Assembly (NCBI GenBank): GCA_041659005.1 | Contig: JBAZZD010000001.1 | Span: 16,366 to 80,365, forward strand | Direction: 5' to 3' | Source: Minisyncoccota bacterium | GTDB taxonomy: Bacteria > Patescibacteriota > Minisyncoccia > UBA6257 > GWB1-50-10 | DNA: 64,000 nt | In this document: piece after piece, positions 6,321 through 63,880 of the stretch | How the letters are laid out: each line of letters begins with the position of its first letter | How positions within the stretch are numbered: position 1 is the first letter of the stretch | The notes under the pieces: model-generated | Database searches by the model: none | What the model saw: only the letters and a program-made list of their open reading frames with translations | Told to the model about the DNA's origin: nothing | Position numbers and translations under genes: made by a program

Positions 6321-6487
6321 ATATATTGGTTAATTGTTTATGTTCTGAGTGTAACAGAAAATCCTAAGAAGGGAAACGTTCTTGTGCGTTCGCCATTGTT
6401 TAGAGAAAAAGTGATACAAAAACATAATCATGATAAGATTAGAAAATTGAGAAAAACACCCTACCCTAACACTACAATTTATCAGTT

Positions 6488-15296: not shown

Positions 15297-16166
15297 TTAA
15301 GGGTTACAAAATCTTATATAAACTCTTCGTAATTTATTACATAATTCGGGAATATTTTTTTTATCGACGTCTTCTGATTTAGGTATTTTATAATCACGAT
15401 GCACCATTTTATTTACCTCGTTTTTAAATACCCTGACTAAACTACACAAATCCTCAACCAAATCTTTGAAATCATAAAAGGCAGATGAATTTGCCTTTAA
15501 ATTATCAATTAATTTATCAAGATTTAAAATTCTTCCGTTAGTTGTGTCATACCATAATTGGTGATTTTGCTGTATATATTTTCCATTTTCATCCCGTTCC
15601 CTGAAAACTATTTCAAAAACTCTATGAATTATGCATTCTATTAATTTTCTGGTTAGAATCATCACGGCTAAATAAAGTCCTTCTCTATAGCTCTCATTTA
15701 TTTCTTTTTTTATGTAATCTAAAAATGGATCATTAAAATCATACTGTAAAAAATCTAAACTATTTTGAACCCCACTTATTTCTTCTTCTAATAATTCTAT
15801 TTTGTTTTGCGAAATATCTAGTTTGAAATTGGATTTTTTTACTTCGTCTAATAATTCTGGATACCATTTTTTAATATAGGTTCCGTAATAATTCCAGTTA
15901 TCTCTTTGTGTATTTTTTATTTTTTCATCAAAAATTACTTTCTCTAAAATGGCTAAATATCTATATGAAGGAACTCTTTGCATAAACTGAGCAAAATTAT
16001 TTTGCTCAGTACTCATGAATGAATAGGCCTCAAAGTTACTATAAAAATTATCGGGTAAATTAATCCCGTTAGCTTTTAAAAAATCAACAAATCCACCATT
16101 TTCATAACAGTGTATGTATAGCTTTTCAGATAATTCCCATATTCTGTTATTAATTATTAAAGCCAT
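15297..16166 (-). CDS. Hypothetical protein (operon partner of the Mrr-NTPase gene)
   Basis: 289-aa ORF, 3-nt gap to the upstream gene. No family recognised. Confidence 0.45.
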   Translation of the reverse strand: MALIINNRIWELSEKLYIHCYENGGFVDFLKANGINLPDNFYSNFEAYSFMSTEQNNFAQFMQRVPSYRYLAILEKVIFDEKIKNTQRDNWNYYGTYIKKWYPELLDEVKKSNFKLDISQNKIELLEEEISGVQNSLDFLQYDFNDPFLDYIKKEINESYREGLYLAVMILTRKLIECIIHRVFEIVFRERDENGKYIQQNHQLWYDTTNGRILNLDKLIDNLKANSSAFYDFKDLVEDLCSLVRVFKNEVNKMVHRDYKIPKSEDVDKKNIPELCNKLRRVYIRFCNP

Positions 16167-29023: not shown

Positions 29024-29209
29024 ATAGTCGCCTCAAATTTGTTAGTATGTTTAAGAACCTGTTTAGTATGCACCAAAACAAGAAAAAAATGCAACATTGA
29101 AAAAAAACGCGATCTTTTGTATAGTAAACTTCATACTTAAGAAAACTGATAATCATGAAGCCCCTATAGCTCAGTTGGTAGATCCGCCGTGGCGGACTCT
29201 TAAGCAAAT

Positions 29210-29464
29210 ATGTTCTTCGTCTATTTAATAAAAAGTAAAACATCAGGAAAAATATATATTGGACAAACGATAAATCTTGAAAAAAGATTAATGCGGCACA
29301 ATGGAATACTTCCAACAAAAAATTCATCATTCACTAATAAACAAGGGGAAAATTGGGAGGTACTATATACAGAACAATTTAAAACAAGAACAGAAGCAAA
29401 AAAGAGAGAAAGAGAATTAAAATCAGGAAAAGGTAGAGAATTTCTTAAAAATCTAATACAGTAG
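29210..29464 (+). CDS. Small GIY-YIG (URI/YhbQ-like) nuclease, copy 1
   Basis: 84 aa. FFVYLIKSKTSGKIYIGQTINLEKRLMRHN is the GIY-YIG core. Confidence 0.6.
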   Translation: MFFVYLIKSKTSGKIYIGQTINLEKRLMRHNGILPTKNSSFTNKQGENWEVLYTEQFKTRTEAKKRERELKSGKGREFLKNLIQ

Positions 29465-29520
29465 TAATAAGCCCCTATAGCTCAGTTGGTAGATCCGCCG
29501 TGGCGGACTCTTAAGCAAAT

Positions 29521-29775
29521 ATGTTCTTCGTCTATTTAATAAAAAGTAAAACATCAGGAAAAATATATATTGGACAAACGATAAATCTTGAAAAAAGATT
29601 AATGCGGCACAATGGAATACTTCCAACAAAAAATTCATCATTCACTAATAAACAAGGGGAAAATTGGGAGGTACTATATACAGAACAATTTAAAACAAGA
29701 ACAGAAGCAAAAAAGAGAGAAAGAGAATTAAAATCAGGAAAAGGTAGAGAATTTCTTAAAAATCTAATACAGTAG
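29521..29775 (+). CDS. Small GIY-YIG (URI/YhbQ-like) nuclease, copy 2 (identical)
   Basis: Identical translation to 29210..29464. Confidence 0.6.
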   Translation: MFFVYLIKSKTSGKIYIGQTINLEKRLMRHNGILPTKNSSFTNKQGENWEVLYTEQFKTRTEAKKRERELKSGKGREFLKNLIQ

Positions 29776-29781
29776 TAATAA

Positions 29782-29854
29782 GCCCCTATAGCTCAGTTGG
29801 TAGAGCAGTTGCCTCTTAAGCAAACGGTCCTAGGTTCAAATCCTAGTGGGGGCA
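29782..29854 (+). tRNA. tRNA-Lys (CTT)
   Basis: Cloverleaf. GCCCCTA acceptor. D-arm GCTC-AGTTGGTA-GAGC. Anticodon loop CTCTTAA. T-arm CTAGG-TTCAAAT-CCTAG. 3' acceptor TGGGGGC+A. CCA not encoded. Confidence 0.8.
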
Positions 29855-29860
29855 CAAATT

Positions 29861-47112: not shown

Positions 47113-47142
47113 TCCCCCGCTTCCGCGGGGATTTTTATTTTA
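47113..47142 (+). terminator. Rho-independent terminator
   Basis: CCCCGCttccGCGGGG followed by ATTTTTATTTT. Confidence 0.55.
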
Positions 47143-47160
47143 TTTCCTTCTTATAAAATA

Positions 47161-47198
47161 TGATAACAGTTACCAACGGCCGTTGGTAACTGTTATCA
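47161..47198. repeat. Palindromic element copy A (perfect 38-bp palindrome)
   Basis: TGATAACAGTTACCAACGG|CCGTTGGTAACTGTTATCA. Confidence 0.9.
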
Positions 47199-47251: not shown

Positions 47252-49357
47252 TTATTTTTTTCCGATTTTTATCCACCATTCGTGCGGAGATTGGCTTGTT
47301 TCGGTATATGAGCATGTTCCGCTACACGCTTCATTCTTCCCTGGACCAATTCCCCACCCTGCTCGCCCAATAGTTGGAGTATCCGTGTTCTTACTCGCAA
47401 TTTTCCACCCCATATCGGTTCCTCGATAAGCCCCAGGCACGTCAAGCCCAAACCAATATGGAACTTCTGGATCAAGTGTTATTGGATTTTCAAAACTAAG
47501 TATGACCTCGGTGCCCTGATCAATTGAAGTATAATTTCCGATCTGAGCTTTTCCGATAACCGTATCAAAATCAGGAAGTCCAGATGGAAACGACGGATAC
47601 ATAATCAGTCGTAATCCAGAGTCGTACACACTATGTTTCCACGTCTTTAGGCCAACCACATCAAATGTTGTTGTTGAATGCACCAATATATTTTGATATT
47701 CTGCCTCATCATTATCAGTATTATATGCGGGTGAATTTCCTGCGTGATATTTATAATCATCTGATTCAGTTTGGGATATGAGAACAGTTGGAGCTACTAG
47801 CCCAATACTTTCGCTAACGATTTCTGAATAATTTCCATCAGTATCTTTCGCGCGAATATGCGCATACGTCGGAAATTCCATTCCGGTAATAAATGATGTG
47901 GTTGTGTTTCCTCCAACATCTTTCCACACAAGAGAACTTGTGGCAGTTGACGAAGAAATCGCAACATCATTTACTAACCCCCCATCTCTTGAATCTAAAT
48001 CGATTGGATTATTCCATTGTAACGTTATAGAAGATTTATTTGTTGTATATTCTGATTGAATTGGTCCATTGGAAACAGGATTTTCCCCTTTATTTTCTTC
48101 TGAATTAAAATAGTATCGCGTTGCATCACGAGTTATTGGATTAAAATATCGTTCCGACGCCGTAAGATCCAATGAATAAAATGCAAATGTTACATAATCA
48201 CTTGGCAAAAACTGCATTTGTCCCTCTGGCAGAACTGGTTTTAAAATAATCACATTATCTTCGGTATAATTTATGCTGTAATTTCCTGATCCTGGCCCGT
48301 ATCCAAGACAATTTCCGGCTCCTCCTGGGAATACCACATCTTTTGTCTGCGACTCATATCCATGACATCCAGGAAATCTAAGCGTGAGCGTATCGGGTAA
48401 ATTTTCAAATTCTTTTGTTTGTCCAGTAAGCTCTGCGTCTTTATTAAAGTACACCACTAATTTTCGTTCATGATTCTGGTCATTAAAATCAGGTATGAAC
48501 GGATATTGTTCTGTGGTTAATTCAATAATTGGTTCACTATTTCGCGTTCCAAAATATACCTGACCCACATAACTTGGTACTGAAATAGAAATGTCTACAG
48601 GAGCGGAACACGCATAATCACGATCGCACGCCTTTAATTGAAATGAATAGTCTTTTCCAACATACAGAGGAACATATGAAAATGTGGTTGAAGCGGTATG
48701 TACAATTTGCGTTGTGCTTGTACCAGAAACCAGCGTGACATCATACCACGCACCATTTCCCTCACTATCCGTTGACGTGCTCCACGAAAAATTAATTACA
48801 TTGCTATTTTGAATATATTCAGCGTATGTCTCTTTTCCATTTTGTTTTTCAGGGGGCGGTGGGGCATCACGTGGCTCGATCATGCTTGCACCATTTTGTG
48901 GAGTTGGATTATCTCGTACTTCAAAATCCGAATGCATAAGTTCCGTGTCGCATGCATTTCCTTGAAATTCTCCCGAACCATTTGTGATTGCAGAGGCACA
49001 CATATTTCCATTCCACGCACGTCGCTCAAGTGACTTTCCATTTGATAAATCAAAGTCTTTGTAATTTACAAAATCAACAACATCAACATCATTTACTGAC
49101 TCAATTTTCTCGTCATTTTTTACCAAAAATACGAGTCCGCCAGTTTGCGCACTAGACATTGAAAATGTGCGATGGGAAAGATCGGGCGTGGTTGATGCAC
49201 TATATCCATCGTCTCCATTAACACTTAGTCCACGCGCGATAAGAAAATATACTTCTCCACGAATTGAGGAGGATGCAATAAAATTTTTCTTAGAAACCGT
49301 CTCGGGTGTTATTTCCTCTGCTAATCCAGACGCATATTGAATTGACCATCCAGTCAT
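47252..49357 (-). CDS. Large Ser/Thr/Asn-rich putative surface protein
   Basis: 701 aa. beta-rich low-complexity composition. Directly downstream (different frame) of the LTD/PKD protein. Confidence 0.5.
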   Translation of the reverse strand: MTGWSIQYASGLAEEITPETVSKKNFIASSSIRGEVYFLIARGLSVNGDDGYSASTTPDLSHRTFSMSSAQTGGLVFLVKNDEKIESVNDVDVVDFVNYKDFDLSNGKSLERRAWNGNMCASAITNGSGEFQGNACDTELMHSDFEVRDNPTPQNGASMIEPRDAPPPPEKQNGKETYAEYIQNSNVINFSWSTSTDSEGNGAWYDVTLVSGTSTTQIVHTASTTFSYVPLYVGKDYSFQLKACDRDYACSAPVDISISVPSYVGQVYFGTRNSEPIIELTTEQYPFIPDFNDQNHERKLVVYFNKDAELTGQTKEFENLPDTLTLRFPGCHGYESQTKDVVFPGGAGNCLGYGPGSGNYSINYTEDNVIILKPVLPEGQMQFLPSDYVTFAFYSLDLTASERYFNPITRDATRYYFNSEENKGENPVSNGPIQSEYTTNKSSITLQWNNPIDLDSRDGGLVNDVAISSSTATSSLVWKDVGGNTTTSFITGMEFPTYAHIRAKDTDGNYSEIVSESIGLVAPTVLISQTESDDYKYHAGNSPAYNTDNDEAEYQNILVHSTTTFDVVGLKTWKHSVYDSGLRLIMYPSFPSGLPDFDTVIGKAQIGNYTSIDQGTEVILSFENPITLDPEVPYWFGLDVPGAYRGTDMGWKIASKNTDTPTIGRAGWGIGPGKNEACSGTCSYTETSQSPHEWWIKIGKK

Positions 49358-49448
49358 ATCAATGGTGCTTGTGCTTGGATTGTATAGCTCAATAAATTCA
49401 TCCCCCGCATCTACTCCTCCATACTGAATTTCAGAAATTACTATGTGA

Positions 49449-51731
49449 TCAGCTTTCCTCCCCCCCGCTTGGTTCTATTGATACCGTAGTAGTCGCAAGT
49501 GTATATTCATCTTCATTGTCATACACGCTAACTTCAGCGATATAAGTTCCAACAGTAGAATAGGTATGCTCTGTTGTGTTTATCACCGACGTAAATTCTG
49601 TCTCATCGCCAAATTTCCATATATATTTTTCAATTATTCCATCGGGATCAGTTGAAGATGCAAACAGTGTTACCACATCGCGTTCCTTTGGTTCGCCTGG
49701 GGTAAATGAGAATTCAACAATTGGTTTTTGATTTGTATGTGGCGGAGTATATTTATTTTCTTCTCCTGGTGTTGGCGTTGACGGATACCAAGAATTCGCA
49801 ATCTTCTGTAATGAATTTCCATCGCCATTCGCACCATACGAACTAAAATATTCTGCCTCTCCTAAATTGCGAACATTTCCAAACATCGCAAGTGTATCGC
49901 GAGTATTTGAAAGGGCCATGGCGCTTTTCCACAACGAACCAACATAATTGGGGAAATTTTCTAAAAATTTCTCTGGCGAATTCGCAATAACTCCATATTC
50001 ATGTGACACAAGAACATCATTCCCACGCCATAACGAGAGGGCATGCTTTTGTCCTGATTCTACAAACCGAAGATTCTTTATTGTCACCGTTGAAGTTCCC
50101 GAGTTATATATTTCTACCCATTCACTCCCCGTATCACTTCCCACCGCATTATACATAATCTCCGTGATATCAATTTTTACGTTTGGATATTCGTCAGTCA
50201 CAACATATGCGCCACCAGAACCGCCGCTTGATGCCGCTCGCGTAGTTGTATTACCTGCTGTCTGCGTTGACGTCGCGACGGTCGTAGTGGTGATGGTCGT
50301 CGTTGTAATTGTTGTGGTTGTGATTATCTGCTGAGCTGCCTCAGTTGTTGTCGCAATAAATTCAGATCGAATTGGTCTTTCAAAAACTACTTCTTGTTGT
50401 GGTTGTATTTCTAATTGTGTCTGCATCTCCTGTTGTTCTTCTGGTTGCTCTACCAACTCCACATTATTTTCTTTATTTACCAATTCTTCGTTTGTGTTAT
50501 CTATTATTATTTCTGGAATAATTGTTTCACTATCAGAAACAACCAAATTAGATGACGCATCATTTTTTGTCTTTTGTTGAGGATCTCCACTTATGAGCGA
50601 AATGATTGCGTCAGAAACGGTTCCAAATAATTCCGCAACCGCATTAAATGCGCGCCCCGCCTCACCAATAAATGAAAATGCTGGCGTACGAAATGCATGC
50701 CGATCAATTCCTAAAATATGTGGTGCGAACTCATTCGCAATTTTCTGATCCTCCCCCTGCTTCAAAAATAATTCAATTACTCCCGCGCCGCCCTGAACTG
50801 CTTTTGATGCAAGCCGAGAAAAATATGAACCGAGAATAATTTTACTTTCAGAAAAAATTAATTCCTTTTTTAGTGAAACGGTATCGCTATTTTTTCTTTT
50901 AACCTCGGCTATTTTGAATTTTTCTCCCTTTTCATTAATCACATATGCATAATTTCCATCAGTATTAACAACTTTCGGATTTTCATATTTTGGATCGTTA
51001 ATCGTATCTTTTGAAAAGAAATATTTATTTGAGTATTCCGCCATTGCACCTAACGAATCCTGAATTGTCGCGAACGAAACTACTGGCTTTCCTTCTTTTA
51101 TAAGCACCTCGGGAATATGTAAATTTTTAATTGAACTACTATTCCACACAACAGCGTACGCCTCATAGGGAGAGCCCTCGTCTCCCGTCACTTCCTTGAG
51201 TGGCGCATGTGAATCATTCCGCGTATGATCGGGCATCGCCATATCTTCGAACAAGTGAAGCGCATGTCCCAATGCTTTCATTGCTGCTTCTCTGTCGTTT
51301 TTTGCATATGCTTGAAGTCCAGTTCTCCACGAATTGTCTCCTCCATATCGCACATAATCATACTGCGCCAGGTCGTTCACCGCCCATTCAGGTACCGAAA
51401 GTGGCTCTCGCGAGATAATCCCCACACGAGCAAATGCTTGTGTTGCAAGTGCTGGAGTATCCCCTTGGTGTTCCCCTGTCCATCCCTCATTTCTCACAGG
51501 ATCATAAAAATGATTCACCCATCGAGGTGTAATGTCCTCATTTTTACTTCCTTCAATAATCAGTTTCTGATCACTTTCAGAAATTTTTGTGTCAGGATGC
51601 GTGAGATTATAAAATCTCAAAATTTCCTGAGTGAGTGCAGGATGAGTAGTGTCGTCGTCATACGCAAATACAGAAGGTACTGAGCACAGAAATATTCCCA
51701 AGAAAACAAACAAAGTTTTCCTAAAATTCAT
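49449..51731 (-). CDS. Secreted large protein with lamin-tail-domain (LTD)-like and PKD-like regions and a Thr-rich linker
   Basis: Signal peptide MNFRKTLFVFLGIFLCSVPSVFA. TTTITTTTITTTTV linker. LTD-like ITEIMYNAVGSDTGSEWVEIYNSG. C-terminal PKD-like DPDGIIEKYIWKFGD. Confidence 0.6.
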   Translation of the reverse strand: MNFRKTLFVFLGIFLCSVPSVFAYDDDTTHPALTQEILRFYNLTHPDTKISESDQKLIIEGSKNEDITPRWVNHFYDPVRNEGWTGEHQGDTPALATQAFARVGIISREPLSVPEWAVNDLAQYDYVRYGGDNSWRTGLQAYAKNDREAAMKALGHALHLFEDMAMPDHTRNDSHAPLKEVTGDEGSPYEAYAVVWNSSSIKNLHIPEVLIKEGKPVVSFATIQDSLGAMAEYSNKYFFSKDTINDPKYENPKVVNTDGNYAYVINEKGEKFKIAEVKRKNSDTVSLKKELIFSESKIILGSYFSRLASKAVQGGAGVIELFLKQGEDQKIANEFAPHILGIDRHAFRTPAFSFIGEAGRAFNAVAELFGTVSDAIISLISGDPQQKTKNDASSNLVVSDSETIIPEIIIDNTNEELVNKENNVELVEQPEEQQEMQTQLEIQPQQEVVFERPIRSEFIATTTEAAQQIITTTTITTTTITTTTVATSTQTAGNTTTRAASSGGSGGAYVVTDEYPNVKIDITEIMYNAVGSDTGSEWVEIYNSGTSTVTIKNLRFVESGQKHALSLWRGNDVLVSHEYGVIANSPEKFLENFPNYVGSLWKSAMALSNTRDTLAMFGNVRNLGEAEYFSSYGANGDGNSLQKIANSWYPSTPTPGEENKYTPPHTNQKPIVEFSFTPGEPKERDVVTLFASSTDPDGIIEKYIWKFGDETEFTSVINTTEHTYSTVGTYIAEVSVYDNEDEYTLATTTVSIEPSGGEES

Positions 51732-52726: not shown

Positions 52727-52949
52727 CTCGTTGGGGAAAATGGAGACTTGGGGATTTAGTCTCCTTACGCAGAAATATTTGCTCATTTTAAAAAAAGAAA
52801 AAATCTTAGTCTCCAAAAATCTATAACCCTCTCTCGTTTGTAAGGTAAAGATTTTATAATTCAATCTCCTCATCAAATCTGTTGAAGTCCGACTTCAACA
52901 GATTGTCTCAATAGATCGGAAAGTAATAAAAAGACCCCATAGCGAGGTC

Positions 52950-53515: not shown

Positions 53516-54841
53516 ATGGGAATTCACAAAAAATCCCTTCTCCTCATTGGGGATATCATCGTGCTCTATATAGCACTTGCGGGTACACTCCTCGTTCGAT
53601 ATCGCAATATCGGCCTATTTAAAGAGAACTGGAGCCTACACATCGCCCCATTCTCCATAATCTTCATCCTGTGGATCATTGTGTTTTACTGGACCGATCT
53701 CTACCGCTATAAAGCGTTCAGGAGCCGCGAATGGCTACTAAAGGCACTATCAGGCGGGATTATACTCTCAGCAGGACTTTCAATAATTTTCTTCTATCTA
53801 TTTCCTACCGTTTTTGGAGTCATGCCAAAAACAAACCTCCTTATTTTTAGTGCTGTTTCTTTTTTTCTTTTGTATTTTTGGCGAATGCGCATTCGAACGT
53901 TATTCGTAAAAAATGCAGCAAACACTATTGTGCTCGGTAATACCCCACTCCTTTCTTCCACTGTTCAATTTTTAAAAGAAAACCCACAAATCGGATTTAA
54001 CGTTACCGAATGGATTCAGGTAGTAACAAAAGAAGCACTTGAATCTCTCCCAACAAAAATAACACAAACTGATTCGCATCTTATTGTTGTACAAAAAAAC
54101 GCATTAACCGATCCAAAAACACTTTCAGCACTCTATAAACTTCTTCCACTTGAAACATCCGTAATGACTTTTTCAAATTTTTACGAAGCGGTTTTTGAAA
54201 AGGAACCAATAGAAGAACTCAACGAAAGCTGGTTCATTGAACACATCACCGTTCGCAGACCACTCTACGATATGGTAAAACGCACAACTGACATTGTTGC
54301 CGCAATTATGATGATTATTATTTTCATTCTCCCATCCATATTTATCGCATTATTTATAAAACTCTCATCGAGTGGGAAAATTATTTATTCACAAATACGC
54401 ATAGGAAAAAATAATATTCCATTCACACTCTACAAATTTAGGAGTATGCGGGCAGATGCCGAAAAAGATGGCGCACAATGGTCAAAAGAAAATGACAATC
54501 GCACTACAAAAATTGGAAAATTTTTACGATACACACATCTTGATGAACTTCCACAAACATGGAATATACTCCGCGGAGATATCTCGCTTGTTGGCCCTCG
54601 TCCTGAACGCCCAGAATTTACTAAAACACTTGAAAAAGAAATTCCGTTTTACAACATTCGCCACATCATCCGCCCAGGATTCACCGGACACGCACAGGTA
54701 AATTATCGTTATGGCGCATCGGTAGAAGATTCAAAAGAAAAGCTCGCATACGACATTTATTACATAAAACATCGCTCAACTATTACCGACAATTTCATTG
54801 TCCTCAAAACAGTGAAAATGATATTCGTAAAACTTATTTAA
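53516..54841 (+). CDS. Polyprenyl-phosphate sugar phosphotransferase (WbaP/EpsL-like bacterial sugar transferase)
   Basis: N-terminal TM region. C-terminal domain YKFRSMRADAE..LDELPQ..NILRGDISLVGPRPERPEF (PF02397-type). Confidence 0.8.
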   Translation: MGIHKKSLLLIGDIIVLYIALAGTLLVRYRNIGLFKENWSLHIAPFSIIFILWIIVFYWTDLYRYKAFRSREWLLKALSGGIILSAGLSIIFFYLFPTVFGVMPKTNLLIFSAVSFFLLYFWRMRIRTLFVKNAANTIVLGNTPLLSSTVQFLKENPQIGFNVTEWIQVVTKEALESLPTKITQTDSHLIVVQKNALTDPKTLSALYKLLPLETSVMTFSNFYEAVFEKEPIEELNESWFIEHITVRRPLYDMVKRTTDIVAAIMMIIIFILPSIFIALFIKLSSSGKIIYSQIRIGKNNIPFTLYKFRSMRADAEKDGAQWSKENDNRTTKIGKFLRYTHLDELPQTWNILRGDISLVGPRPERPEFTKTLEKEIPFYNIRHIIRPGFTGHAQVNYRYGASVEDSKEKLAYDIYYIKHRSTITDNFIVLKTVKMIFVKLI

Positions 54842-54872
54842 AAATATTTCAATAAAGTCTTATATCCCAAAA

Positions 54873-54910
54873 TGATAACAGTTACCAACGACCGTCGGTA
54901 ACTGTTATCA
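54873..54910. repeat. Palindromic element copy B
   Basis: TGATAACAGTTACCAACGACCGTCGGTAACTGTTATCA (one mismatch in the stem). Confidence 0.9.
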
Positions 54911-54924
54911 TTTAGCATTAATGT

Positions 54925-55518
54925 TTATTTAGTTACTGTCCCTCGTTTTGTTACCTCAAATACATGAACGTAATTAAATATTCCTAAGTCATAAAGATCC
55001 TCGATGAAATTTTTGGGGATTTTTTTATTTCCAATCCATACACTTTGCTGTAAAAGCGAAAACCCCATTTCCTTTAACGTCTCGCGGATCCAACTCCGTT
55101 TTTCTTTTATCTTCTCTGGTATATCAAATGCAACAATAGTATAATTTTTCTGATTCTCACATAAATATTCCCTTGGTTTTTTCTTTCGTATTTCCTTTAT
55201 TGAGTCCCTTCCATCCCCCGACAGTTTCCACTTCTTGCTTTTTCGTTCTACGAGTCCCTGTTTTTCAAGGCTAAGAAGTACGTTATAAAACGAAATTTTT
55301 GTATTCCTCGGTATTTTTATCTCTTTTTTATTTTTTATAGGAACTCCAAAATAAGCATGGGCATAACGATTATGCATATCAGTCGGATTGAGGAAAATAT
55401 TTGCGAAAATTTCAGCAGTAGAAAATGCACCCTCCTTCAAAACTTCTAAGACGAGGTGTGACTTCGTTCCCCATCTTTTTTTCTTTTTTATTGAAATTAA
55501 TTTTTTATCCATAATCAT
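54925..55518 (-). CDS. Winged-helix DNA-binding protein with C-terminal Cas2/VapD-like ferredoxin-fold domain (PaaX-like architecture)
   Basis: wHTH-like LVLEVLKEGAFSTAEIFANIF..LSLEKQGLVERK. C-terminal TIVAFDIPEKIKEKRSWIRETLKEMGFSLLQQSVWIG resembles the Cas2 beta1-alpha1-beta2 core (YDV..R..v...L...G.RvQ.SVf). Confidence 0.45.
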   Translation of the reverse strand: MIMDKKLISIKKKKRWGTKSHLVLEVLKEGAFSTAEIFANIFLNPTDMHNRYAHAYFGVPIKNKKEIKIPRNTKISFYNVLLSLEKQGLVERKSKKWKLSGDGRDSIKEIRKKKPREYLCENQKNYTIVAFDIPEKIKEKRSWIRETLKEMGFSLLQQSVWIGNKKIPKNFIEDLYDLGIFNYVHVFEVTKRGTVTK

Positions 55519-55550
55519 TTTCTTTGTTTTCTTTATTTCAGTATACCACA

Positions 55551-55592
55551 GGTGATAACAGTTACCGACGACCGTCGGTAACTGTTATCACC
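55551..55592. repeat. Palindromic element copy C (perfect 20-bp arms, AC centre)
   Basis: GGTGATAACAGTTACCGACGacCGTCGGTAACTGTTATCACC. Confidence 0.9.
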
Positions 55593-55695
55593 CCCTGTTG
55601 TGTATATATTAATTAATTTTTTATGAAGAATAAACAAGAATCAGATAAAGCAAGGGTGGAATTTTAGAGAAAAATAGGTACAATGGGATATATCT

Positions 55696-57156
55696 ATGAT
55701 ACCGAAGATTAAGTCATTCCTTTTTGAAAACAAGACAGAGGCACAAACAATTGCAAAAAACACCTTTTGGCTTACATTCGGAATGATCGTGAGCCGTTCT
55801 ATTCGAGCAATAATGATCATGTACGCCGCTCGAGTCCTTGGAACTGAAGGATACGGTGTTTTTTCATACGCACTCAGTTTTGCCGGACTTTTTGGTGTAT
55901 TTTCTGATATGGGGCTCTCTGGAATTCTCACAAGACAAGCCGTCCAAGAACCAGAAAAAATAAAAACATATATTTCGACCACGTTTTTTCTTAAACTTAT
56001 TGCACTTGTTGTTACTATATTTATCACTATCTTCATTGGACCTTACCTTACCAATGTTAAGGGGATTCAAGAACTTCTCATCGTGGTAAGTGCGCTTCTT
56101 GCATTTGACTCGCTTCGTGGATTTGCGTTTTCTATCGCACGAGCAAAAAATAAAATGCAAATTGAGTCTGGCGCAAATGTCCTCACCGATGGACTCATTA
56201 CCCTCTTAGGAATTCTCGCGTTATTTTTATATCCATCAGCAAAATTTCTTGCATATGGATACACAATGGGTGTAGTTCTGGGGACCACAATAACATTTTT
56301 TATTCTTCATAAAGATTTTTCAGGAATCTTCAATCATTTCAATAAAGAAACTGCAAAACTTGTACTTCGTAGTTCATGGCCATTTGCGCTTATGGGGCTT
56401 TTTGGCGGACTGATGATTAACATAGACGTACTTGTCATTGGATGGTTTCGAACTGCGCATGATTTAGGACTGTACGGAGCCGCGCAACGACCAATTGTGT
56501 TTTTATATGTGCTTCCTTCATTATTTGCCGCAAGCATTTTCCCAATTATAAGTCGCTACGTAAAGGAAAAAAAAACTGATTTGATAAAACGAATGATAGA
56601 AAAATCCATTTCCATTTCAATGATGTTTGCATTTCCTCTTCTTGTTGGAGGCGTTATCGTTGGGGTTCCGCTTACAGTATTTATCTTTGGGGGCGCATTC
56701 ATTGATGCATCATCACCATTTCAAATATTACTTCTCACCGTACCGTTAGTATTTGCCGGTTCAATTATGGGAAATGTATTGTTTGCGCACAACAAACAAA
56801 AAACATTTATTGTTGGATACGGACTTGGCGCACTTGCAAATATTGTGCTTGATCTTATTCTTATACCTCCTTATGGCGTAACCGGTTCAGCATTCGCAAC
56901 TCTTGTTTCTCAAATTTTCTCCAATGGATGGCTTTGGCTTAATATGCAAAAAACAATTCCGTTTTCTTTGTTTCCGCATATAAAAAAAATCATAATCGCA
57001 TCTATTGGAATGGGAATTGTGTGTTTTCTCGTTTCCACACTTTCTCCTCATGTGCTTTTCACTATAGGAACGGGGGGCGCCGTATATCTTGGATTGCTTA
57101 TCTTACAAAAAGAGCCACTTTTACAAAAACTCAACCCAAAAATGTTAGTGGAGTAG
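55696..57156 (+). CDS. Wzx-type polysaccharide/oligosaccharide flippase (MOP superfamily)
   Basis: 486 aa, about 12-14 TM helices. N-terminus typical of PST family (TFWLTFGMIVSRSIRAIMIMYAARVLG). Confidence 0.75.
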   Translation: MIPKIKSFLFENKTEAQTIAKNTFWLTFGMIVSRSIRAIMIMYAARVLGTEGYGVFSYALSFAGLFGVFSDMGLSGILTRQAVQEPEKIKTYISTTFFLKLIALVVTIFITIFIGPYLTNVKGIQELLIVVSALLAFDSLRGFAFSIARAKNKMQIESGANVLTDGLITLLGILALFLYPSAKFLAYGYTMGVVLGTTITFFILHKDFSGIFNHFNKETAKLVLRSSWPFALMGLFGGLMINIDVLVIGWFRTAHDLGLYGAAQRPIVFLYVLPSLFAASIFPIISRYVKEKKTDLIKRMIEKSISISMMFAFPLLVGGVIVGVPLTVFIFGGAFIDASSPFQILLLTVPLVFAGSIMGNVLFAHNKQKTFIVGYGLGALANIVLDLILIPPYGVTGSAFATLVSQIFSNGWLWLNMQKTIPFSLFPHIKKIIIASIGMGIVCFLVSTLSPHVLFTIGTGGAVYLGLLILQKEPLLQKLNPKMLVE

Positions 57157-57163
57157 TAATCAT

Positions 57164-57203
57164 ATGATAATCAATAAAAACGACCGTTTTTATTGATTAT
57201 CAT
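57164..57203. repeat. Palindromic element copy D (perfect 19-bp arms, AC centre, same ends and centre as A-C but different middle)
   Basis: ATGATAATCAATAAAAACGacCGTTTTTATTGATTATCAT. Confidence 0.9.
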
Positions 57204-57274
57204 AGTTCCTTTCAAATATGAAAGGGAATTGTTGACATATGAAAATCCATTTTGCTTTTTACCTATTTAAACAT

Positions 57275-58021
57275 TTAAATCAAAAACTGTGTTAGTTTTG
57301 AAAGTATTCTTCGAGCAATAAAGAACGAAGGAATTTTTAGATTATTAACCAGCCAAGCCCTTTTTAATTCTTTCCAACCAATCCTTCTCTGCCCAATATC
57401 GCGTCCGGAAGCGCCACCATTATACATTCGGACCAAAACGCGCGGGAAATATTTTATGTTTACCCTATAAATTTTTAAAATCCTTAAAATAAATTCATAG
57501 TCGCCTGCTATCTTAAAATTAGAGTTAAACAAACCGCATTTTTCATAAACCGTTCGGTGCAAAAATAAAGCGGGATGCGGGATAATCCAACCATTATTTA
57601 ATTTATTTTCCCGATACTCCCCCGCCCGCCATATTCTTGTCATCTTATTAACATCAGTAGAAAAATATCCCACGTCACCGTAAACTGCCTCAATCTTTTC
57701 ATCCCTAAAAGCTTCAATGACATTTGCTAAAACTTTATCGTTATCAAATAAGTCATCAGAATTTAAAATCCCGATAATTTTCCCGCTGGCCATTTTAATT
57801 CCCCTATTCATCGCATCGTAGATACCGTTATCTTTTTCACTTACCCAATAAAAGATTTTATCGTTATATTTTTTTATAATATCAACAGTTCCGTCGGTTG
57901 ATCCACCATCAATAACAATATGTTCTACATCAACATTCTTCTGAGAAAGAACGCCCTGAATCGTAGCCTCTATGGTTAGAACACTGTTATAACAAGGAGT
58001 TACAATAGAAATTTTCATCAT
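57275..58021 (-). CDS. Family 2 glycosyltransferase
   Basis: ISIVTPCYNS, HIVIDGGSTDGT, DDL motifs. Confidence 0.8.
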   Translation of the reverse strand: MMKISIVTPCYNSVLTIEATIQGVLSQKNVDVEHIVIDGGSTDGTVDIIKKYNDKIFYWVSEKDNGIYDAMNRGIKMASGKIIGILNSDDLFDNDKVLANVIEAFRDEKIEAVYGDVGYFSTDVNKMTRIWRAGEYRENKLNNGWIIPHPALFLHRTVYEKCGLFNSNFKIAGDYEFILRILKIYRVNIKYFPRVLVRMYNGGASGRDIGQRRIGWKELKRAWLVNNLKIPSFFIARRILSKLTQFLI

Positions 58022-59169
58022 TGATATACTTGTTCTATGCGCCTTGCAATGATGCGGGGATCGAATTCTTTACTAACAAGATCTTTTCCTGCAATAATAT
58101 AATTATTGCGAATTTTGTCGTTAGTATAGGTTTGTAAAAGCGCCTCAGCAATTACTTTCTCATTTAAAGAAACAACACTCCCCGCTCCATATTGTGAAAC
58201 AACATCACTGATACCAACATATTCTGAGATAACAATTGGTACCCCAACTGCAAGTGCCTCAGCGGGAGCCATTCCAAAATTCTCTGAATAAGAAGTAAGC
58301 GCAAACACGCGAGCTTCGCGCAAAAGCATTAAACGATCATTTCCCGATACAAGCCCAGTAAAAATTACCCTGTTTGAGATATTAAGATCGCGAATAATAT
58401 TCTGTAATGAATGTAATGTGTTTTCATCTGGACCAGCAATTACTAACTGCGCGTCTTCCATCTCTTCCTTCTCACACAAAAGAGAGAACGCATGAACTAA
58501 ATAGTCAATTCCTTTTTTCCAATTAAGGCGTCCAAAATACAAAATATATTTTCCCCGCATGATTCCAAAATGTTTAAAAATTTGTTCATCCAAGAAAAAA
58601 TTGTTTAACTCGCCTACATCCAATGCGTTGGGAATAACACACGATGGAAGAGAAAGTTTTGTAAAAGAGAGAAACTCTTTTTTTTCAAAGTTTGAAGTAA
58701 AATGGATTAATTTTGCGTGCTTATAGATATTTTTTAGGATTATCTGATATAATAACATTTTTTTAAAAAAGCTCTTTTTTTTCACAAGTGCGACATCCAT
58801 AGAACCGCGAGGAGAAAAAACAAATGGGCGCTCATGACACACAAAAAATTTTCCTGAAATCCAACACATCGGATCCCAAGTAAGATGGATATGAAATATA
58901 TCGAATGACTTATGAGTTTTTCTTAAAGCAGAAATAAAAGAAAATGAAAATCTCCATGTCCGCACCCCCCAAGAAGAAAAATAGTGGACTACTACCCCAT
59001 CAATAATTTTCTCACGCGAAATATTTTCAGAAAGTCCGAACGTTGTCGTATACACAGAAACTGAATGCCCCAATTTAACAAGTTCGGAAGCAAGTAAATG
59101 TACCGAACGAATGGGACCACCCCATCTAACCGACGGATAGTATGCTGGAATAATAAAGCAGATTTTCAT
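58018..59169 (-). CDS. Family 4 (GT-B) glycosyltransferase
   Basis: C-terminal SENFGMAPAEALAVGVPIV (EX7E). Confidence 0.75.
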   Translation of the reverse strand: MKICFIIPAYYPSVRWGGPIRSVHLLASELVKLGHSVSVYTTTFGLSENISREKIIDGVVVHYFSSWGVRTWRFSFSFISALRKTHKSFDIFHIHLTWDPMCWISGKFFVCHERPFVFSPRGSMDVALVKKKSFFKKMLLYQIILKNIYKHAKLIHFTSNFEKKEFLSFTKLSLPSCVIPNALDVGELNNFFLDEQIFKHFGIMRGKYILYFGRLNWKKGIDYLVHAFSLLCEKEEMEDAQLVIAGPDENTLHSLQNIIRDLNISNRVIFTGLVSGNDRLMLLREARVFALTSYSENFGMAPAEALAVGVPIVISEYVGISDVVSQYGAGSVVSLNEKVIAEALLQTYTNDKIRNNYIIAGKDLVSKEFDPRIIARRIEQVYQ

Positions 59170-59184
59170 AAAAACAAATTGAAA

Positions 59185-59856
59185 TCATTTTAAAAAACTA
59201 TAGAAAAATCTTAAAATAGATCTAACAAAATTTTCTAGTTTTTCCTTAAAGATAAGCTTTTTTAAATAACAACTCTTAAAATCACTATCTTGAATAGAAC
59301 TAATTCTCTTGCCAACAATCATACTAAACAGAGAAATATCCTTTAAATCATTTTCTATAAAAGAGTTTTCCTTTCTCATCTTAACGAAAACTCCAGAAGC
59401 CTCAGGATCATCTTTTAAAGAAAATATTTTAAAATCAGAAAATATCTTTTGCATGTCTTCTTTTTCATACCGCCAAAAATCATAAGGATAAGCATGAAAA
59501 TGAAAACCGCGAGATCGAGTTGTTATTATAATTGTTCCTTCCGGTTTACAAATTTTTTTTATATTTGATATAACGGTTTTCCAATCCCTTACATGTTCCA
59601 TTAATTCCGTTGAAATAACGACATCAAAGCTTTCTTTGCCAAACTTATCCACAAGGGAAGAGGCATCACACACGAAATCAACTCCAGGACCATCTTTTAT
59701 ATCAACCCCAATATATTTCTTTGGATTCAACAGGCCAACAATCGATCTGACGCTTCCATTTACGTCATATGAACCAACTTCTATAACATCTTTGCCCTCT
59801 ATTTCGTTTCTTTCTATATTCTCCGCAACATATAATATACAACTTACATGACACAT
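59185..59856 (-). CDS. Class I SAM-dependent methyltransferase
   Basis: Motif I-like VIEVGSYDVNG, FDVVISTELMEHV, KPEGTIIIT. Confidence 0.55.
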   Translation of the reverse strand: MCHVSCILYVAENIERNEIEGKDVIEVGSYDVNGSVRSIVGLLNPKKYIGVDIKDGPGVDFVCDASSLVDKFGKESFDVVISTELMEHVRDWKTVISNIKKICKPEGTIIITTRSRGFHFHAYPYDFWRYEKEDMQKIFSDFKIFSLKDDPEASGVFVKMRKENSFIENDLKDISLFSMIVGKRISSIQDSDFKSCYLKKLIFKEKLENFVRSILRFFYSFLK

Positions 59857-59877
59857 AAAATAAATTTTAAAATATAA

Positions 59878-60849
59878 TTAATATCCTACGACTGTTATGT
59901 ATTTATTTTCGAAATACTCTTTTTTATTTTTGTAATATTCCCAATCAATTCCGTTTTTCTGAAATACAATTTGTGGAATATTTCCATAATACGAAGCAAA
60001 TGCGCCAAACGTACTATTAGAGCCTATTATACAGTCCACCATAGAAAGTTCAAGTAGGTCTCCAATGCTTTTTTCGTTGCGCTCTAAAAAAACATTGAGC
60101 CCAGAAAATATATCTAAATTAACATCACCGTCAGAAAAGACTAGAAAAACAACATTAGAAACATTCAATGAAAAAAAATCTATGTATTTCCGCAATATGA
60201 TCATAATTTCTTCATCAGAGAAATAAAATAATCCATTGGCAAAATAAAGATAATCTCCTTTTCGAATATGTACCCCAACGACAGTCGCATATGATTCCCT
60301 GTATTTCTTAATGCGCTCTCGAGCAGTAATGATGTATTGTTCTTTTGGCAAAAAATACTCCTTTATCTCACTTCTATATTTCAAGATGCCAACAGGATTA
60401 CGAAATAGCCAACCACTAAAATACAGAAAACTTTTTGTTTTTTCTCTATCAAATTCTAATATCTCTTGAGAGGTGCATTGCGAAGGAGGTAAATAAACAG
60501 GAATATTATGTTCGCAATCATGAGTCGCTCGCAGTATATGATCTGGATTTATTAGTTTTATAATGACAACACAAAATTGGTACAATTTTCTCATTACACA
60601 CCTATACCCACGAGCACAAATGGAATTATCGTTTTTAAAGTGAAAATAAATGAATTCTAAAAAATCAAAAAGAAAATTTCCAGAAGAAAAATGAAAATAC
60701 TTTCCATATTCAAAAAATGAATAATTATTACATTTATATTTTTTTTCTAAGCAATATGCGTATACACTCACGAAAAGCCACAATTGGTTCGCAAGCTGCC
60801 CCCCATTGTGTTCTAAAATAATTATCTTCTTCATTTTTTGGTAAAACAA
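59878..60849 (-). CDS. GT11-like (alpha-1,2-fucosyltransferase family) glycosyltransferase
   Basis: GVHIRKGDY matches the GT11 HxRRGDY motif. Confidence 0.5.
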   Translation of the reverse strand: MFYQKMKKIIILEHNGGQLANQLWLFVSVYAYCLEKKYKCNNYSFFEYGKYFHFSSGNFLFDFLEFIYFHFKNDNSICARGYRCVMRKLYQFCVVIIKLINPDHILRATHDCEHNIPVYLPPSQCTSQEILEFDREKTKSFLYFSGWLFRNPVGILKYRSEIKEYFLPKEQYIITARERIKKYRESYATVVGVHIRKGDYLYFANGLFYFSDEEIMIILRKYIDFFSLNVSNVVFLVFSDGDVNLDIFSGLNVFLERNEKSIGDLLELSMVDCIIGSNSTFGAFASYYGNIPQIVFQKNGIDWEYYKNKKEYFENKYITVVGY

Positions 60850-61568
60850 AACATACCGGTCCCAAACCCTCTCGCAGCGTCGTATGCATTAAATATTTCC
60901 TTTCCGTATAAGTACTTTTCTTCGATACACGAAAGTCCAGAAAAAATCTTAAAAACATAATCCCTCGTAAATGCTCTATGTGCATTACAATACGATATAT
61001 TCTCACGATCAACAGGAACAGAAATATATAAAAATCCCCCAGGGGCAAGCACGCGACAAAGCTCCTTTGCTGCTTTTTCTGATCCAAATGCATCTATTGA
61101 ATCTCCATAACGACCCAAACCAATATGCTCAATAACACAAATAGAACTTAGGGACGCAATGCTTCCATCATCAAAAGAAAGAGAGCAAATATTCCCCTTC
61201 ATGAACGACAATCCTTGAAGAGGAAGTTCAACCGGGCGTATATCTATCATCGTTGTCGGAACATACTGAGAAATAATACTCACCAAACCTATATGAGATC
61301 CAACGTCACAATGACGAGTGGGTTTGTGTTTAAAAATCATGGAAGCGCACCATGCATTTTGATAGAAATAAATAGGATCAATGGGGGTTATTTTCGTCTT
61401 ATCAGAAAAAATTGGATACAAATATAAAATTGATGCTCTGAATTCCTTATTTTTCTTTTGAGAATAGAAACTCAAAAAAAACATTGGAGCTTCATAAAAA
61501 AATCTAAAAACATTAAAACGAATGCCCCTCAAACAAGAAAATAATCGATATAATAATTTTAAAAACAT
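60831..61568 (-). CDS. Methyltransferase-like protein (DUF268-like)
   Basis: CDVGSHIGLVS (motif I-like), LAPGGFLYISVP. Confidence 0.4.
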   Translation of the reverse strand: MFLKLLYRLFSCLRGIRFNVFRFFYEAPMFFLSFYSQKKNKEFRASILYLYPIFSDKTKITPIDPIYFYQNAWCASMIFKHKPTRHCDVGSHIGLVSIISQYVPTTMIDIRPVELPLQGLSFMKGNICSLSFDDGSIASLSSICVIEHIGLGRYGDSIDAFGSEKAAKELCRVLAPGGFLYISVPVDRENISYCNAHRAFTRDYVFKIFSGLSCIEEKYLYGKEIFNAYDAARGFGTGMFCFTKK

Positions 61569-61571
61569 AAA

Positions 61572-62813
61572 CTAAGATTTTGACGCGACACTATTTTCAA
61601 AAGCACGAACAATACCAGAAATGTCATGAGCATGATCATAACTGGAAATAATTTCACGAGAACGTATTCCAAATTGATTTCTTTTAGAAGAATTATTGAT
61701 AAGATCACTTAAATATCGAGAAAGATATTTAATGTTACCCAACGGAAAAACAAAACCGTTCTCTCCGTGATGAACAAGATCAACTCCACATCCAACCATA
61801 TCAGAAACGATAATAGGAAGACCAAAATTCATCGCTTCATTTACAACAAGTCCCCACGTTTCTCCTGATCCCGATGGCAAAACAAAAATATCGGCAAGAA
61901 TATAAAATTCCGAAATTTCAGACGGATACCTAATTCCAAGAAGAGTAACATTTTTTATATTGTTGTCTGCGACATATTTTTCAATATCTCCTCTTAGTGG
62001 GCCATCTCCGACAAAAACGAGAACAGCATTATCCAATTGAGTATTATGAAAAGCAGAAAGCAAATCCAACGGTCTTTTCTTTTCTATCAATTTCCCAACG
62101 AATAACACGACTATGGAAGAAGGATTTATTCCAATTTTAATCTTTTTCTCATTTTTTTTAGATCGCAACGTCTCTGCTTGTTTTTGAAAAAAGATATTAT
62201 CTACGGAATACGGAACAAAAAATAATTTAGAATCTGGAATTCCATAGAATTGGTAAAACTTCTTATTTTGCTCTCCAATATAAAGAAATGCGGAAATAAA
62301 AGGAAATAACACCTTCCCCAAAAGAATCTTTTTTATAAAAATGTTAAATCGAGACTTTAAAATCTCTTGATTATATGGACTTTCAACACGAAGAAATATA
62401 GGAATTTTAAAAAAACGCGCCGCGAAAAAAGTTAACCAGTTAGAAAAAAAGTTCCAGCTATGCATGAAAATCGCATCATGATGAGCGGTCTTTATATTCC
62501 AAATAATTGAGGGATTTATGAGACTGAAAAAACTTCCAAAATTAGGAGAAAAAGAAAAATTTTTTAAAAACCGATAATTAATTCCAGTAAGAATATCTTT
62601 GTCATACCATTTAACAACTCTATTAAAAGTTTTATCAAGTCCTTCTTTTATCCCAAAATCAGAACAAAAATAAATACGCTCCTCTAAAATTTCATTATTA
62701 TGTATCTCTCTAAAAAGTCCCAAAAAATAATGTATGGGATGAGACATTATGACGCCAAGTGTATACTTCTTCTTCATACAAACGAAATTAAATTTCTCAA
62801 AATAACGCTCCAC
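61572..62813 (-). CDS. Family 4 glycosyltransferase
   Basis: SGSGETWGLVVNEAMNFGLPIIVSD (EX7E motif). Confidence 0.7.
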   Translation of the reverse strand: MERYFEKFNFVCMKKKYTLGVIMSHPIHYFLGLFREIHNNEILEERIYFCSDFGIKEGLDKTFNRVVKWYDKDILTGINYRFLKNFSFSPNFGSFFSLINPSIIWNIKTAHHDAIFMHSWNFFSNWLTFFAARFFKIPIFLRVESPYNQEILKSRFNIFIKKILLGKVLFPFISAFLYIGEQNKKFYQFYGIPDSKLFFVPYSVDNIFFQKQAETLRSKKNEKKIKIGINPSSIVVLFVGKLIEKKRPLDLLSAFHNTQLDNAVLVFVGDGPLRGDIEKYVADNNIKNVTLLGIRYPSEISEFYILADIFVLPSGSGETWGLVVNEAMNFGLPIIVSDMVGCGVDLVHHGENGFVFPLGNIKYLSRYLSDLINNSSKRNQFGIRSREIISSYDHAHDISGIVRAFENSVASKS

Positions 62814-63880
62814 CTTTTGCCAATAGCAGCAATATTAAATCTTTCAGTAAAAATATTAAATGCATTAGTAGAAATGACAGACATTAGATTAGCATCATTT
62901 TTTAAAAGATACAAAGCATTAATGATCGATTCTGAATCAGCAAAATTACAAAAAATTATATCTCTCTTATCGGAAAAAACAGATAAAACGGCAACCCCAC
63001 GCGCAGTAATAATTGGCTTTTTCATCGCACATGCATCATAAATCTTTGTTGGAACAACAAGGTTTGCTTGTTGAGTGTCGCCAAATTGTCCCAAACAAAT
63101 ATCCATATCTGCCATAATTTCAGCTAACTTCTCCGGAGAGACTACATCATAAAATTGTATATTTTTCAATTTTAGCTTTTTTGCTACATCAATAGTCTCC
63201 AATTTTAATGGGCCATCTCCAATAACAATAAATGTAAATGTGGCATCGTTACGCAATGTAAGTTTATAAGCAGCGTCAACAATGTATTTCATCCCGTGAA
63301 GAGGATAGAAGCTCGAAACACAAAAAATTTTAATGGCTTCATGTTGTTTCATTTTTCTAGGATAATAAATTTCATTATCAGAACCAACGGGAATAAAGCA
63401 AAGTTTTTTAAATGGAATATGAAAAACTTCATGAAAATAATGCATGTGTTCGCTTGTATCCAAAATAACAAGATCGGAAAAAAAACAGGATAAAAAATCT
63501 AAACAAAAAAAATATATTCCATATATTGAAAATGGTTTAAATTTCTTTAGATCGCGAACAAGAACATGAAAATAAGAGATGAACGCATCAAAAACAAGCG
63601 GCTTTCTAAAAAAAATAGAAAATATTTTTGCCACAAAAACATAAGATTGTCCTGCGGCACTTACTATAATACAATCTACATCCGATATAACAGAAAAAAG
63701 ATCACGACTTAAAAAATATAATCGTAATATTTTATTTTTATTCGAATTATTGCACTCAATAACTGAAATGCCCACACCTCTTAATGCTTTTATTGTAATA
63801 CGAACTCGCGCATATGACGGATCATAACTACCAAAATAAACAACTTTCATATAATTCCTATTACTTATCTTTTTAGGCAT
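62774..63880 (-). CDS. GT-B (GT4/GT1-like) glycosyltransferase
   Basis: C-terminal VPTKIYDACAMKKPIITARG resembles the GT-B nucleotide-sugar binding region. Confidence 0.55.
   Translation of the reverse strand: MPKKISNRNYMKVVYFGSYDPSYARVRITIKALRGVGISVIECNNSNKNKILRLYFLSRDLFSVISDVDCIIVSAAGQSYVFVAKIFSIFFRKPLVFDAFISYFHVLVRDLKKFKPFSIYGIYFFCLDFLSCFFSDLVILDTSEHMHYFHEVFHIPFKKLCFIPVGSDNEIYYPRKMKQHEAIKIFCVSSFYPLHGMKYIVDAAYKLTLRNDATFTFIVIGDGPLKLETIDVAKKLKLKNIQFYDVVSPEKLAEIMADMDICLGQFGDTQQANLVVPTKIYDACAMKKPIITARGVAVLSVFSDKRDIIFCNFADSESIINALYLLKNDANLMSVISTNAFNIFTERFNIAAIGKRWSVILRNLISFV

Follow-up and report, generated by a model that had tools for sequence, protein, structure and literature searches.

The window, as we will call the whole stretch of 64,000 nucleotides analysed here, comes from an uncultured member of Candidatus Paceibacterota (Patescibacteria/CPR) and contains a cluster of surface-glycan genes in which a single gene is transcribed against its immediate neighbors. 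This gene (54925..55518, minus strand) codes for a protein of 197 aa with a winged-helix (wHTH) domain followed by a Cas2-like domain (PaaX_M) and will be referred to as the regulator. It lies between a polyprenyl-phosphate glycosyl-phosphotransferase of the Bac_transf family (PGT, 53516..54841, plus strand) and a Wzx-type flippase (Polysacc_synt; wzx, 55696..57156, plus strand). Glycosyltransferases and methyltransferases (57275-63880, minus strand) follow beyond wzx, and large proteins with PKD and fn3 domains (47252-51731, minus strand) are found on the other side. NCBI and JGI both start the regulator at the third codon, so that their protein (P0001, with 100% identity to the window protein) has 195 aa; it is annotated there as 'hypothetical protein, Candidatus Paceibacterota'.

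Four near-perfect palindromes of 38 nt are found around these genes, a 36-nt version of the pattern having no match in 100 shuffles of the window. Palindrome B (54873-54910) lies 14 nt past the stop codon of the regulator, between the convergent PGT and regulator genes, and palindrome C (core 55553-55590, stem 55551-55592) is found 32-34 nt before its start codon, between the divergent regulator and wzx. The first-pass annotation, made from the sequence alone, had described the gene as bracketed by these two copies at distances of 15 and 33 nt, and this was essentially right. Palindrome A (47161-47198) is an extra copy between convergent genes, and the fourth, D (57163-57204), missing from that first list, is located between the 3' ends of wzx and of the glycosyltransferase operon, so that wzx is itself bracketed by C and D. 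D has the length, the ends (TGATAA/TTATCA) and the centre (ACGACCGT) of the other three and differs from them in the middle, which is still self-complementary; only TGATAA and the centre are common to all. A, B and D are all at the 3' ends of convergent genes, away from promoters, and the control of the glycan cluster considered in the first-pass annotation is no more than a possibility. The symmetry covers approximately 40 bp, a length beyond what a pair of wHTH domains would be expected to require. Both B (54882-54911, plus strand) and A (47160-47189, minus strand) contain a promoter-like sequence in which TTACCA and TGnTATCAT are separated by 18 nt. At B it is directed, antisense, towards the 3' end of the regulator gene, and at A its direction is outward from the fn3 operon; it is a match to the consensus only.

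Two other regions of the window deserve a brief description. A type III restriction-modification pair is formed by a Res helicase-nuclease (20024-22384, minus strand) and an N6/N4 DNA methylase (22359-24086, minus strand), and is adjoined by an ORF of 1,284 aa with no Pfam match (16170-20024, minus strand). At 29158-29855 two identical tandem units of 311 nt precede an intact tRNA-Lys(CTT) (29782-29855). Each unit begins with the 5' part of this tRNA, interrupted by a GC hairpin, and contains an ORF of 57 aa that matches the C-terminal half of a GIY-YIG nuclease (E=4e-4, below threshold). These units are either a decayed insertion beside the tRNA gene or an assembly artefact.

Domain architecture of the regulator

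The C-terminal part of the protein (residues 118-196; 54931..55167, minus strand) is a Cas2-like domain, in which residues 126-193 match PF20803 (PaaX_M, Cas2-like) with 50.5 bits against a cut-off of 24; PaaX of Escherichia coli itself reaches 33.5 bits. The N-terminal part (approximately residues 19-112; 55183..55464, minus strand) has the wHTH fold and gives no match at E<=1 to PF07848, the N-terminal wHTH of PaaX, its alignment with the PaaX recognition helix being reached only by profile comparison. In such a comparison (hhalign, family profile against E. coli PaaX) both proteins are collinear from the recognition helix through the Cas2-like domain (E=8e-4). The AF2 model of the window protein has a Cas2 fold with the beta1 aspartate motif, its Foldseek matches include Cas2 chains, and the profile of the domain matches Cas2 6jhz, the signature in common being FD[LM]P..R..GF..Q.SV[YW]. 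The PaaX-like combination of a wHTH with a Cas2-like ferredoxin fold, read originally from the ORF alone, is therefore correct by PF20803, structure model, Foldseek and profile alignment alike.

PaaX, a repressor responsive to phenylacetyl-CoA that is known from E. coli and Pseudomonas (PDB 8A39, 3L09), differs from the window protein in carrying a third domain, PaaX_C (residues 190-280 in E. coli), proposed to be the effector-binding part. The window protein stops at residue 197, directly after the Cas2-like domain, and does not match PF08223 (PaaX_C); since the effector domain is missing, no signal can be proposed for the regulator. The PaaX equivalog model is far from being reached (TIGR02277, 16.2 bits versus a cut-off of 264.55), and no paa genes are found near the gene, whose neighbors are involved in glycan synthesis. 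The curated thresholds for Cas2 are not reached either (PF09827, 19.4 versus 23.8; TIGR01573, 23.3 versus 24.5), which makes the window protein neither a member of the PaaX equivalog nor a Cas2. It resembles Cas2, especially that of type II-A, in fold, beta1 aspartate motif and signature residues, and differs in its fusion to a wHTH and in the lack of cas1, a CRISPR array or other cas genes. No CRISPR-like array was found in the window and PADLOC gave no match of Cas1 strength among its 47 ORFs of at least 150 aa. Both absences had been remarked upon at the outset, and a CRISPR-Cas context was rejected.

Across the family the Cas2-like domain is highly conserved and the N-terminal wHTH is variable. 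In the family alignment the residues F131-D-I-P-E135, R141, R145 and S159-V160 are invariant, and W143, Q157 and W161 are nearly so (at least 90%). Type II-A Cas2 shares the resulting signature (FDIPE...R..R...QxSVW); E. coli PaaX has lost it, the aligned residues there being SEGLD and APSLM. Given that the family has kept what PaaX has lost, a catalytic role of the Cas2-like domain is possible, and the conservation of the signature exceeds what a pure role in dimerisation needs.

Palindromes and promoters across the family

An exhaustive profile search found 5,211 clusters (50% identity) at E<=1e-3, of which 767 at E<=1e-30. The homologues are about 190-200 aa long and all have PF20803; nearly all of the best 150 have between 180 and 205 aa. 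Relatives are encoded at 266 loci (one genome per GTDB species), and all 80 loci retrieved out of these 266 came from Patescibacteria, a restriction that, among the loci retrieved, sets the family apart from PaaX. Several genomes have two to four paralogues.

The association of gene and palindrome was examined at 82 loci (985 kb). Long palindromes centred on CGRYCG were within 100 nt of the gene in 67 out of 85 cases, versus 7 out of 94 for palindromes with other centres, and in 67 of the 74 gene-proximal palindromes overall the centre was CGATCG, CGGCCG or CGACCG/CGGTCG. When sites were picked by their centre alone, at least one was found within 200 nt of 52 of the 73 genes, and 23 of these 73 had sites on both sides. 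The density amounts to 2.45 sites per kb in the gene flanks versus 0.018 per kb elsewhere, roughly 140-fold over background. The palindromes have 30-50 nt, and their centres are located at a median of 53 nt before the start (upstream) and 41.5 nt past the stop (downstream).

The arms of these palindromes behave very differently from their centre. They vary freely from genome to genome, and are nevertheless 89% identical between two sites around one gene versus 41% on average between the sites of paralogues in one genome (median 33%, the random level). Copies within a locus share the centre (distance 1-4) and the outer arm (approximately 12-17) and vary at distances 5-11. At L086, whose protein is 52-54% identical, the orthologous gene is bracketed by palindromes of the D type. 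These observations taken together indicate that the palindromes are very probably the regulator's own sites, and the proposal that the protein is a palindrome-binding, autoregulating regulator gains strong comparative support from the pairing across the family and from the private arms, as well as from the geometry and promoter position described below.

A way to look at the function of these sites is to examine their position with respect to the promoter. On the strand of the regulator, an extended -10 element (TGGTATACT, 55540..55548, minus strand) begins 2 nt downstream of palindrome C. Equivalent upstream palindromes are present in L001, L006, L004 and L086 (downstream ones in L001, L006 and L086), and in all five orthologous cassettes, the window included, an extended -10 of the type TGnTAnnnT is found 2-7 nt past the upstream palindrome (TGATATAAT in L001, L006 and L086; TGGTATAAT in L004). 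A -10-like box abuts the edge of the palindrome in many other family loci. With the -10 directly past the palindrome, a bound dimer would cover the -35 and spacer region.

The operator of E. coli PaaX consists of two distal inverted hexamers, TGATTC(N27)GAATCA, spanning 39 bp, and steric hindrance is the reported mechanism by which PaaX represses its own promoter (review PMC9493321). The window palindrome, TGATAA-N26-TTATCA (38 bp), has the same geometry of distal inverted half-sites, and the positions that are conserved within a locus coincide with these distal hexamers. The placement at the gene's own promoter is of the autorepression type in both. Unlike the PaaX operator, the proposed operator of the window is near-perfectly palindromic over its full length, with CGRYCG conserved at the core.

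The situation of wzx, on the other side of palindrome C, is less clear. A TACAAT box lies about 11 nt upstream of its start (55679-55684 in the window) and is conserved at L092, a relative without the regulator (approximately 6345-6350). Since this box is kept with and without the cassette, wzx may have a promoter of its own outside of it, which makes control of wzx by C uncertain.

Dispersed solo copies of the flanking palindromes also exist and are sparse in the incomplete genomes compared. The 13 solo sites that could be classified were found mostly between convergent genes (7), with 5 between tandem genes and 1 between divergent ones. Neither these nor A, B and D are explained by an operator at a promoter. 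A scan of JGI metagenome contigs for TGATAA-N8-RACGRYCGTY-N8-TTATCA recovered only six contigs, two of them from one organism. Solo palindromes of the form TGATAA...CGRYCG...TTATCA were seen on L088 (12311-12348), L089 (6499-6536) and L090 (592-629), and a PaaX-like ORF, recognised by its FDIPE or QQSVW motif, was not found on the stretches of these three contigs that were examined.

The preference for convergent 3' regions invites an explanation in terms of transcript ends. The palindromes could serve chiefly as hairpins, in RNA or in DNA, that terminate transcription in both directions, attenuate it or stabilise the 3' ends of mRNAs, and the protein could bind or process the RNA hairpins. 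Relatives of Cas2 and VapD can be RNases. The predicted hairpins are indeed very stable (z-scores -7.4 to -9.4), and palindrome A on the minus strand, with its T-rich tail, passes a terminator scan, D doing so weakly and B and C failing. Among the differences between arms, in sites picked by centre alone, 37 were compensated, 33 affected both arms without compensation and 162 affected one arm, i.e., compensated differences are in excess and the symmetry is not absolute. We had at first counted 68 symmetric versus 9 one-arm differences and discarded this apparent proof of a hairpin by perfect symmetry, as the count was biased by the selection of near-perfect palindromes. To our mind, template-switch correction of quasi-palindromes could also yield compensated differences. 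Several observations speak against a role in the transcript. Most copies lack a U-tract, and canonical terminators are found next to A (47115-47130) and to the downstream copy of L001. The upstream copy precedes the conserved -10 and would not be transcribed from the gene's own promoter. The CGACCG/CGGTCG centres do not clearly favor one strand over the other with respect to the gene (9 versus 5 in a manual tally), and Rfam at gathering thresholds gave nothing at the palindromes, the only matches in the window being two tRNAs. On balance this explanation appears quite improbable to us. A simple terminator was rejected as an improbable account of most copies, given the missing U-tracts and the separate canonical terminators beside some of them.

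The neighbors of the family are heterogeneous, including TrxB-like, MurJ/Wzx, Bac_transf, LepA/EF-G and UvrC proteins, and a uniform functional context was rejected; the link with glycans holds only for the window's own clade. At L043 msrA, located approximately 7 kb from the regulator, is bracketed by palindromes of the same type as those that accompany the regulator itself, which is how a regulon target would look. In this Harrisonbacteria genome the msrA region is located at 15340-16154 and the palindromes have a TTTTGACGATCGTCAAAA core. TrxB-like genes are the commonest family neighbors (8 of 139). Together, msrA and the TrxB-like neighbors give a hint of a redox theme for some members.

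Presence and absence of the cassette

The window, L001, L006, L086 and L004 all have the gene in the interval from PGT to wzx, on the strand opposite to these two. At L092 PGT and wzx are adjacent and co-directional, separated by a 35-nt spacer, and neither the regulator gene nor any long palindrome is found within 11 kb. The L092 PGT is 85% identical to that of the window and 96% to that of L006, and two outgroups (PGT 49-51% identical) have the same empty arrangement. By blastn the stretch of the window without counterpart in L092 is 54841-55661. The cassette can hence be described as palindrome B, the gene, palindrome C and some 70 nt beyond C (approximately 54841-55661, 821 nt), with the edges of the indel 31 nt outside B and about 70 nt outside C. 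The joint absence of gene and palindromes in L092 is a further argument, at the level of sequence, for the tie between them.

The same stretch also stands out by its divergence. Compared with L001, identity is about 0.83-0.9 before the block (about 0.83 in PGT), falls to 0.55-0.67 exactly over 54840-55674 and rises again to 0.83-0.95 in wzx. Genomes with PGTs of 85-90% identity have regulators that share only 47-58%; between L001 and L004 the figures are 60% for the regulator and 56% for PGT. A second case of presence and absence is provided by L084, in which a block of 1,221 nt is found exactly between the stop codon of a DUF4012 gene and the start codon of lepA, and holds a small zinc-ribbon-like ORF followed by the gene with one palindrome on either side of it. 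DUF4012 and lepA adjoin (0-20 nt apart) in four relatives (L096-L099; LepA 70-89% identical). The extra ORF of L084 (1414-1746; 111 aa, two CxxC pairs) is followed by its own terminator-like hairpin.

The first-pass annotation had raised the possibility of a mobile cassette and had proposed checking its presence in related genomes. The clean indel and the divergence with respect to the flanks give substance to the idea as far as an exchangeable accessory unit is concerned. Hallmarks of a transposon were not found: neither a target-site duplication nor conserved termini outside the palindromes were seen, and no genome had near-identical copies of the cassette, the paralogues being old and divergent. 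A classical IS was rejected on these grounds and by the extra ORF of the L084 insertion.

A more elaborate version of this idea is a selfish, palindrome-bounded cassette similar to REP/RAYT or IS200 elements. The protein would recognise extruded hairpins or cruciforms, stem base and loop being read by the wHTH and the Cas2-like domain, and the retained acidic site of Cas2 type would nick or process them for mobility or maintenance; occlusion of the promoter would be secondary, as for transposases that bind their own terminal repeats. Much of the above would fit. The gene is bracketed on both sides at 23 of 73 loci, every gene copy has arms of its own, which is also seen in REP/RAYT families, and near-perfect stems surround a conserved loop or centre. 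Presence and absence was clean in the two cases tested (PGT/wzx, and DUF4012/lepA in L084 versus L096-L099), the edges of the far more diverged block are sharp, the solo copies lie mostly between convergent genes, like REPs, and the family has kept the Cas2 signature residues that E. coli PaaX lacks. The likeness to REP/RAYT systems extends to the small single gene between two palindrome copies, to the private palindrome of each gene family and to the solo palindromes in intergenic 3' regions. Furthermore, true RAYT-like genes exist in the same phylum, bracketed by another class of palindromes: two Y1_Tnp (RAYT/IS200-like) genes at L081 are surrounded by palindromes with a GAAGTCCGACTTC core.

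On the other hand, the window protein is not an HUH/Y1 enzyme (Y1_Tnp gives no match) and is homologous to an established repressor, PaaX; we know of no recombinase or transposase with the Cas2 fold. The hallmarks of transposition listed above are missing, the edges lie well outside both palindromes, and L084 has an additional gene in its insertion. The solo copies are few (0.018 per kb) compared to those of REP/RAYT systems, and here the palindrome abuts a promoter. The insertion site is moreover the same in genomes whose PGTs are only 55% identical. All considered, we regard a selfish cassette as rather unlikely. It is a still less likely and more speculative proposition that wHTH-Cas2-like proteins and their private CGRYCG palindromes constitute an unrecognised class of hairpin-bounded cassettes, selfish or domesticated, with a Cas2-type nuclease acting on hairpins or cruciforms; if true, they would be REP/RAYT analogues that work without an HUH enzyme, and Cas2 would have a free-living relative capable of specific DNA binding.

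A solo copy of the GAAGTCCGACTTC-core class is also found in the window, where a REP-like palindrome (AATCTGTTGAAGTCCGACTTCAACAGATT, 52876-52904) is located in an ORF-free stretch of 430 nt. L001 (8775-8809) and L006 have kept it at the equivalent location.

The resemblance of the domain to both Cas2 and VapD suggested another reading, a single-chain module of the toxin-antitoxin type or a defence module, in which a VapD/Cas2-type nuclease 'toxin' would be fused to an autoregulatory, antitoxin-like wHTH domain. Several genomes do have divergent copies in unrelated contexts, behaving as accessory indels, and palindromic operators at the promoter recall the autoregulation of toxin-antitoxin systems. 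A partner gene is absent, PADLOC gives no defence-system match beyond weak matches to Cas2, and the architecture is collinear with that of the repressor PaaX; the second palindrome and the solo sites would be left unexplained. This reading seems very improbable to us.

Proposed mode of action and significance

The interpretation that we prefer is that of an autoregulated, dimeric PaaX-like repressor that travels together with its operators as an accessory cassette, to which we would assign a probability of roughly 0.55. The protein would be a transcription factor of PaaX type that has lost the C-terminal effector domain. The Cas2-like domain would form the dimer, and the two winged-helix domains would read the distal TGATAA...TTATCA half-sites, some 26 bp apart, with the family-wide CGRYCG core lying on the dyad, under the conserved Cas2-like dimer. 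The variability patterns of protein and DNA match, from which we infer that the private outer arms are recognised by the variable wHTH, with the conserved dimer positioned on CGRYCG. Compared with local winged-helix repressors of the PadR/MarR type, the dimer would here be formed through the Cas2-like domain, and the operator has roughly double the length.

A dimer bound at palindrome C, directly next to the regulator's own extended -10, would repress the promoter of the regulator, i.e., the gene would be autoregulated. B, A and D might be additional binding sites at the ends of operons. Among the possible roles for such extra sites are roadblocks, anchors of loops bracketing a gene (B-C, C-D, or the msrA of L043) and a behavior similar to that of REPs. 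The regulator and its sites would have been inserted as an accessory cassette into the interval between PGT and wzx, two genes that adjoin in the same orientation where the cassette is missing. An autoregulated repressor of this kind and the other explanations that we have considered are not fully exclusive.

In the literature library that was searched we found no paper linking PaaX to Cas2 or Cas2-like domains or to the candidate phyla radiation, or describing the family, and a literature search combining Patescibacteria, transcription factor, palindrome and PaaX gave nothing relevant. What is new here is the phylum-wide scale of the family and the rule that the arms are private and the CGRYCG core is universal, together with the conserved junction of operator and promoter and the existence of the unit as an indel inserted into the PGT-wzx operon.

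To our knowledge, gene regulation has hardly been explored in the Candidate Phyla Radiation, whose members encode few recognisable transcription factors. Each member of the family described here has a DNA site that is predictable from sequence, making regulon prediction and simple in vitro tests possible. The retention of signature residues by a Cas2-like domain that is found outside of CRISPR and tied to specific palindromic DNA bears on the uses of the Cas2 fold and on the origin of PaaX-type regulators. For the organisms themselves, the cassette splits a surface-glycan operon (PGT-wzx) in some strains and not in close relatives, and its presence or absence could underlie strain-level differences in the expression of surface glycans.
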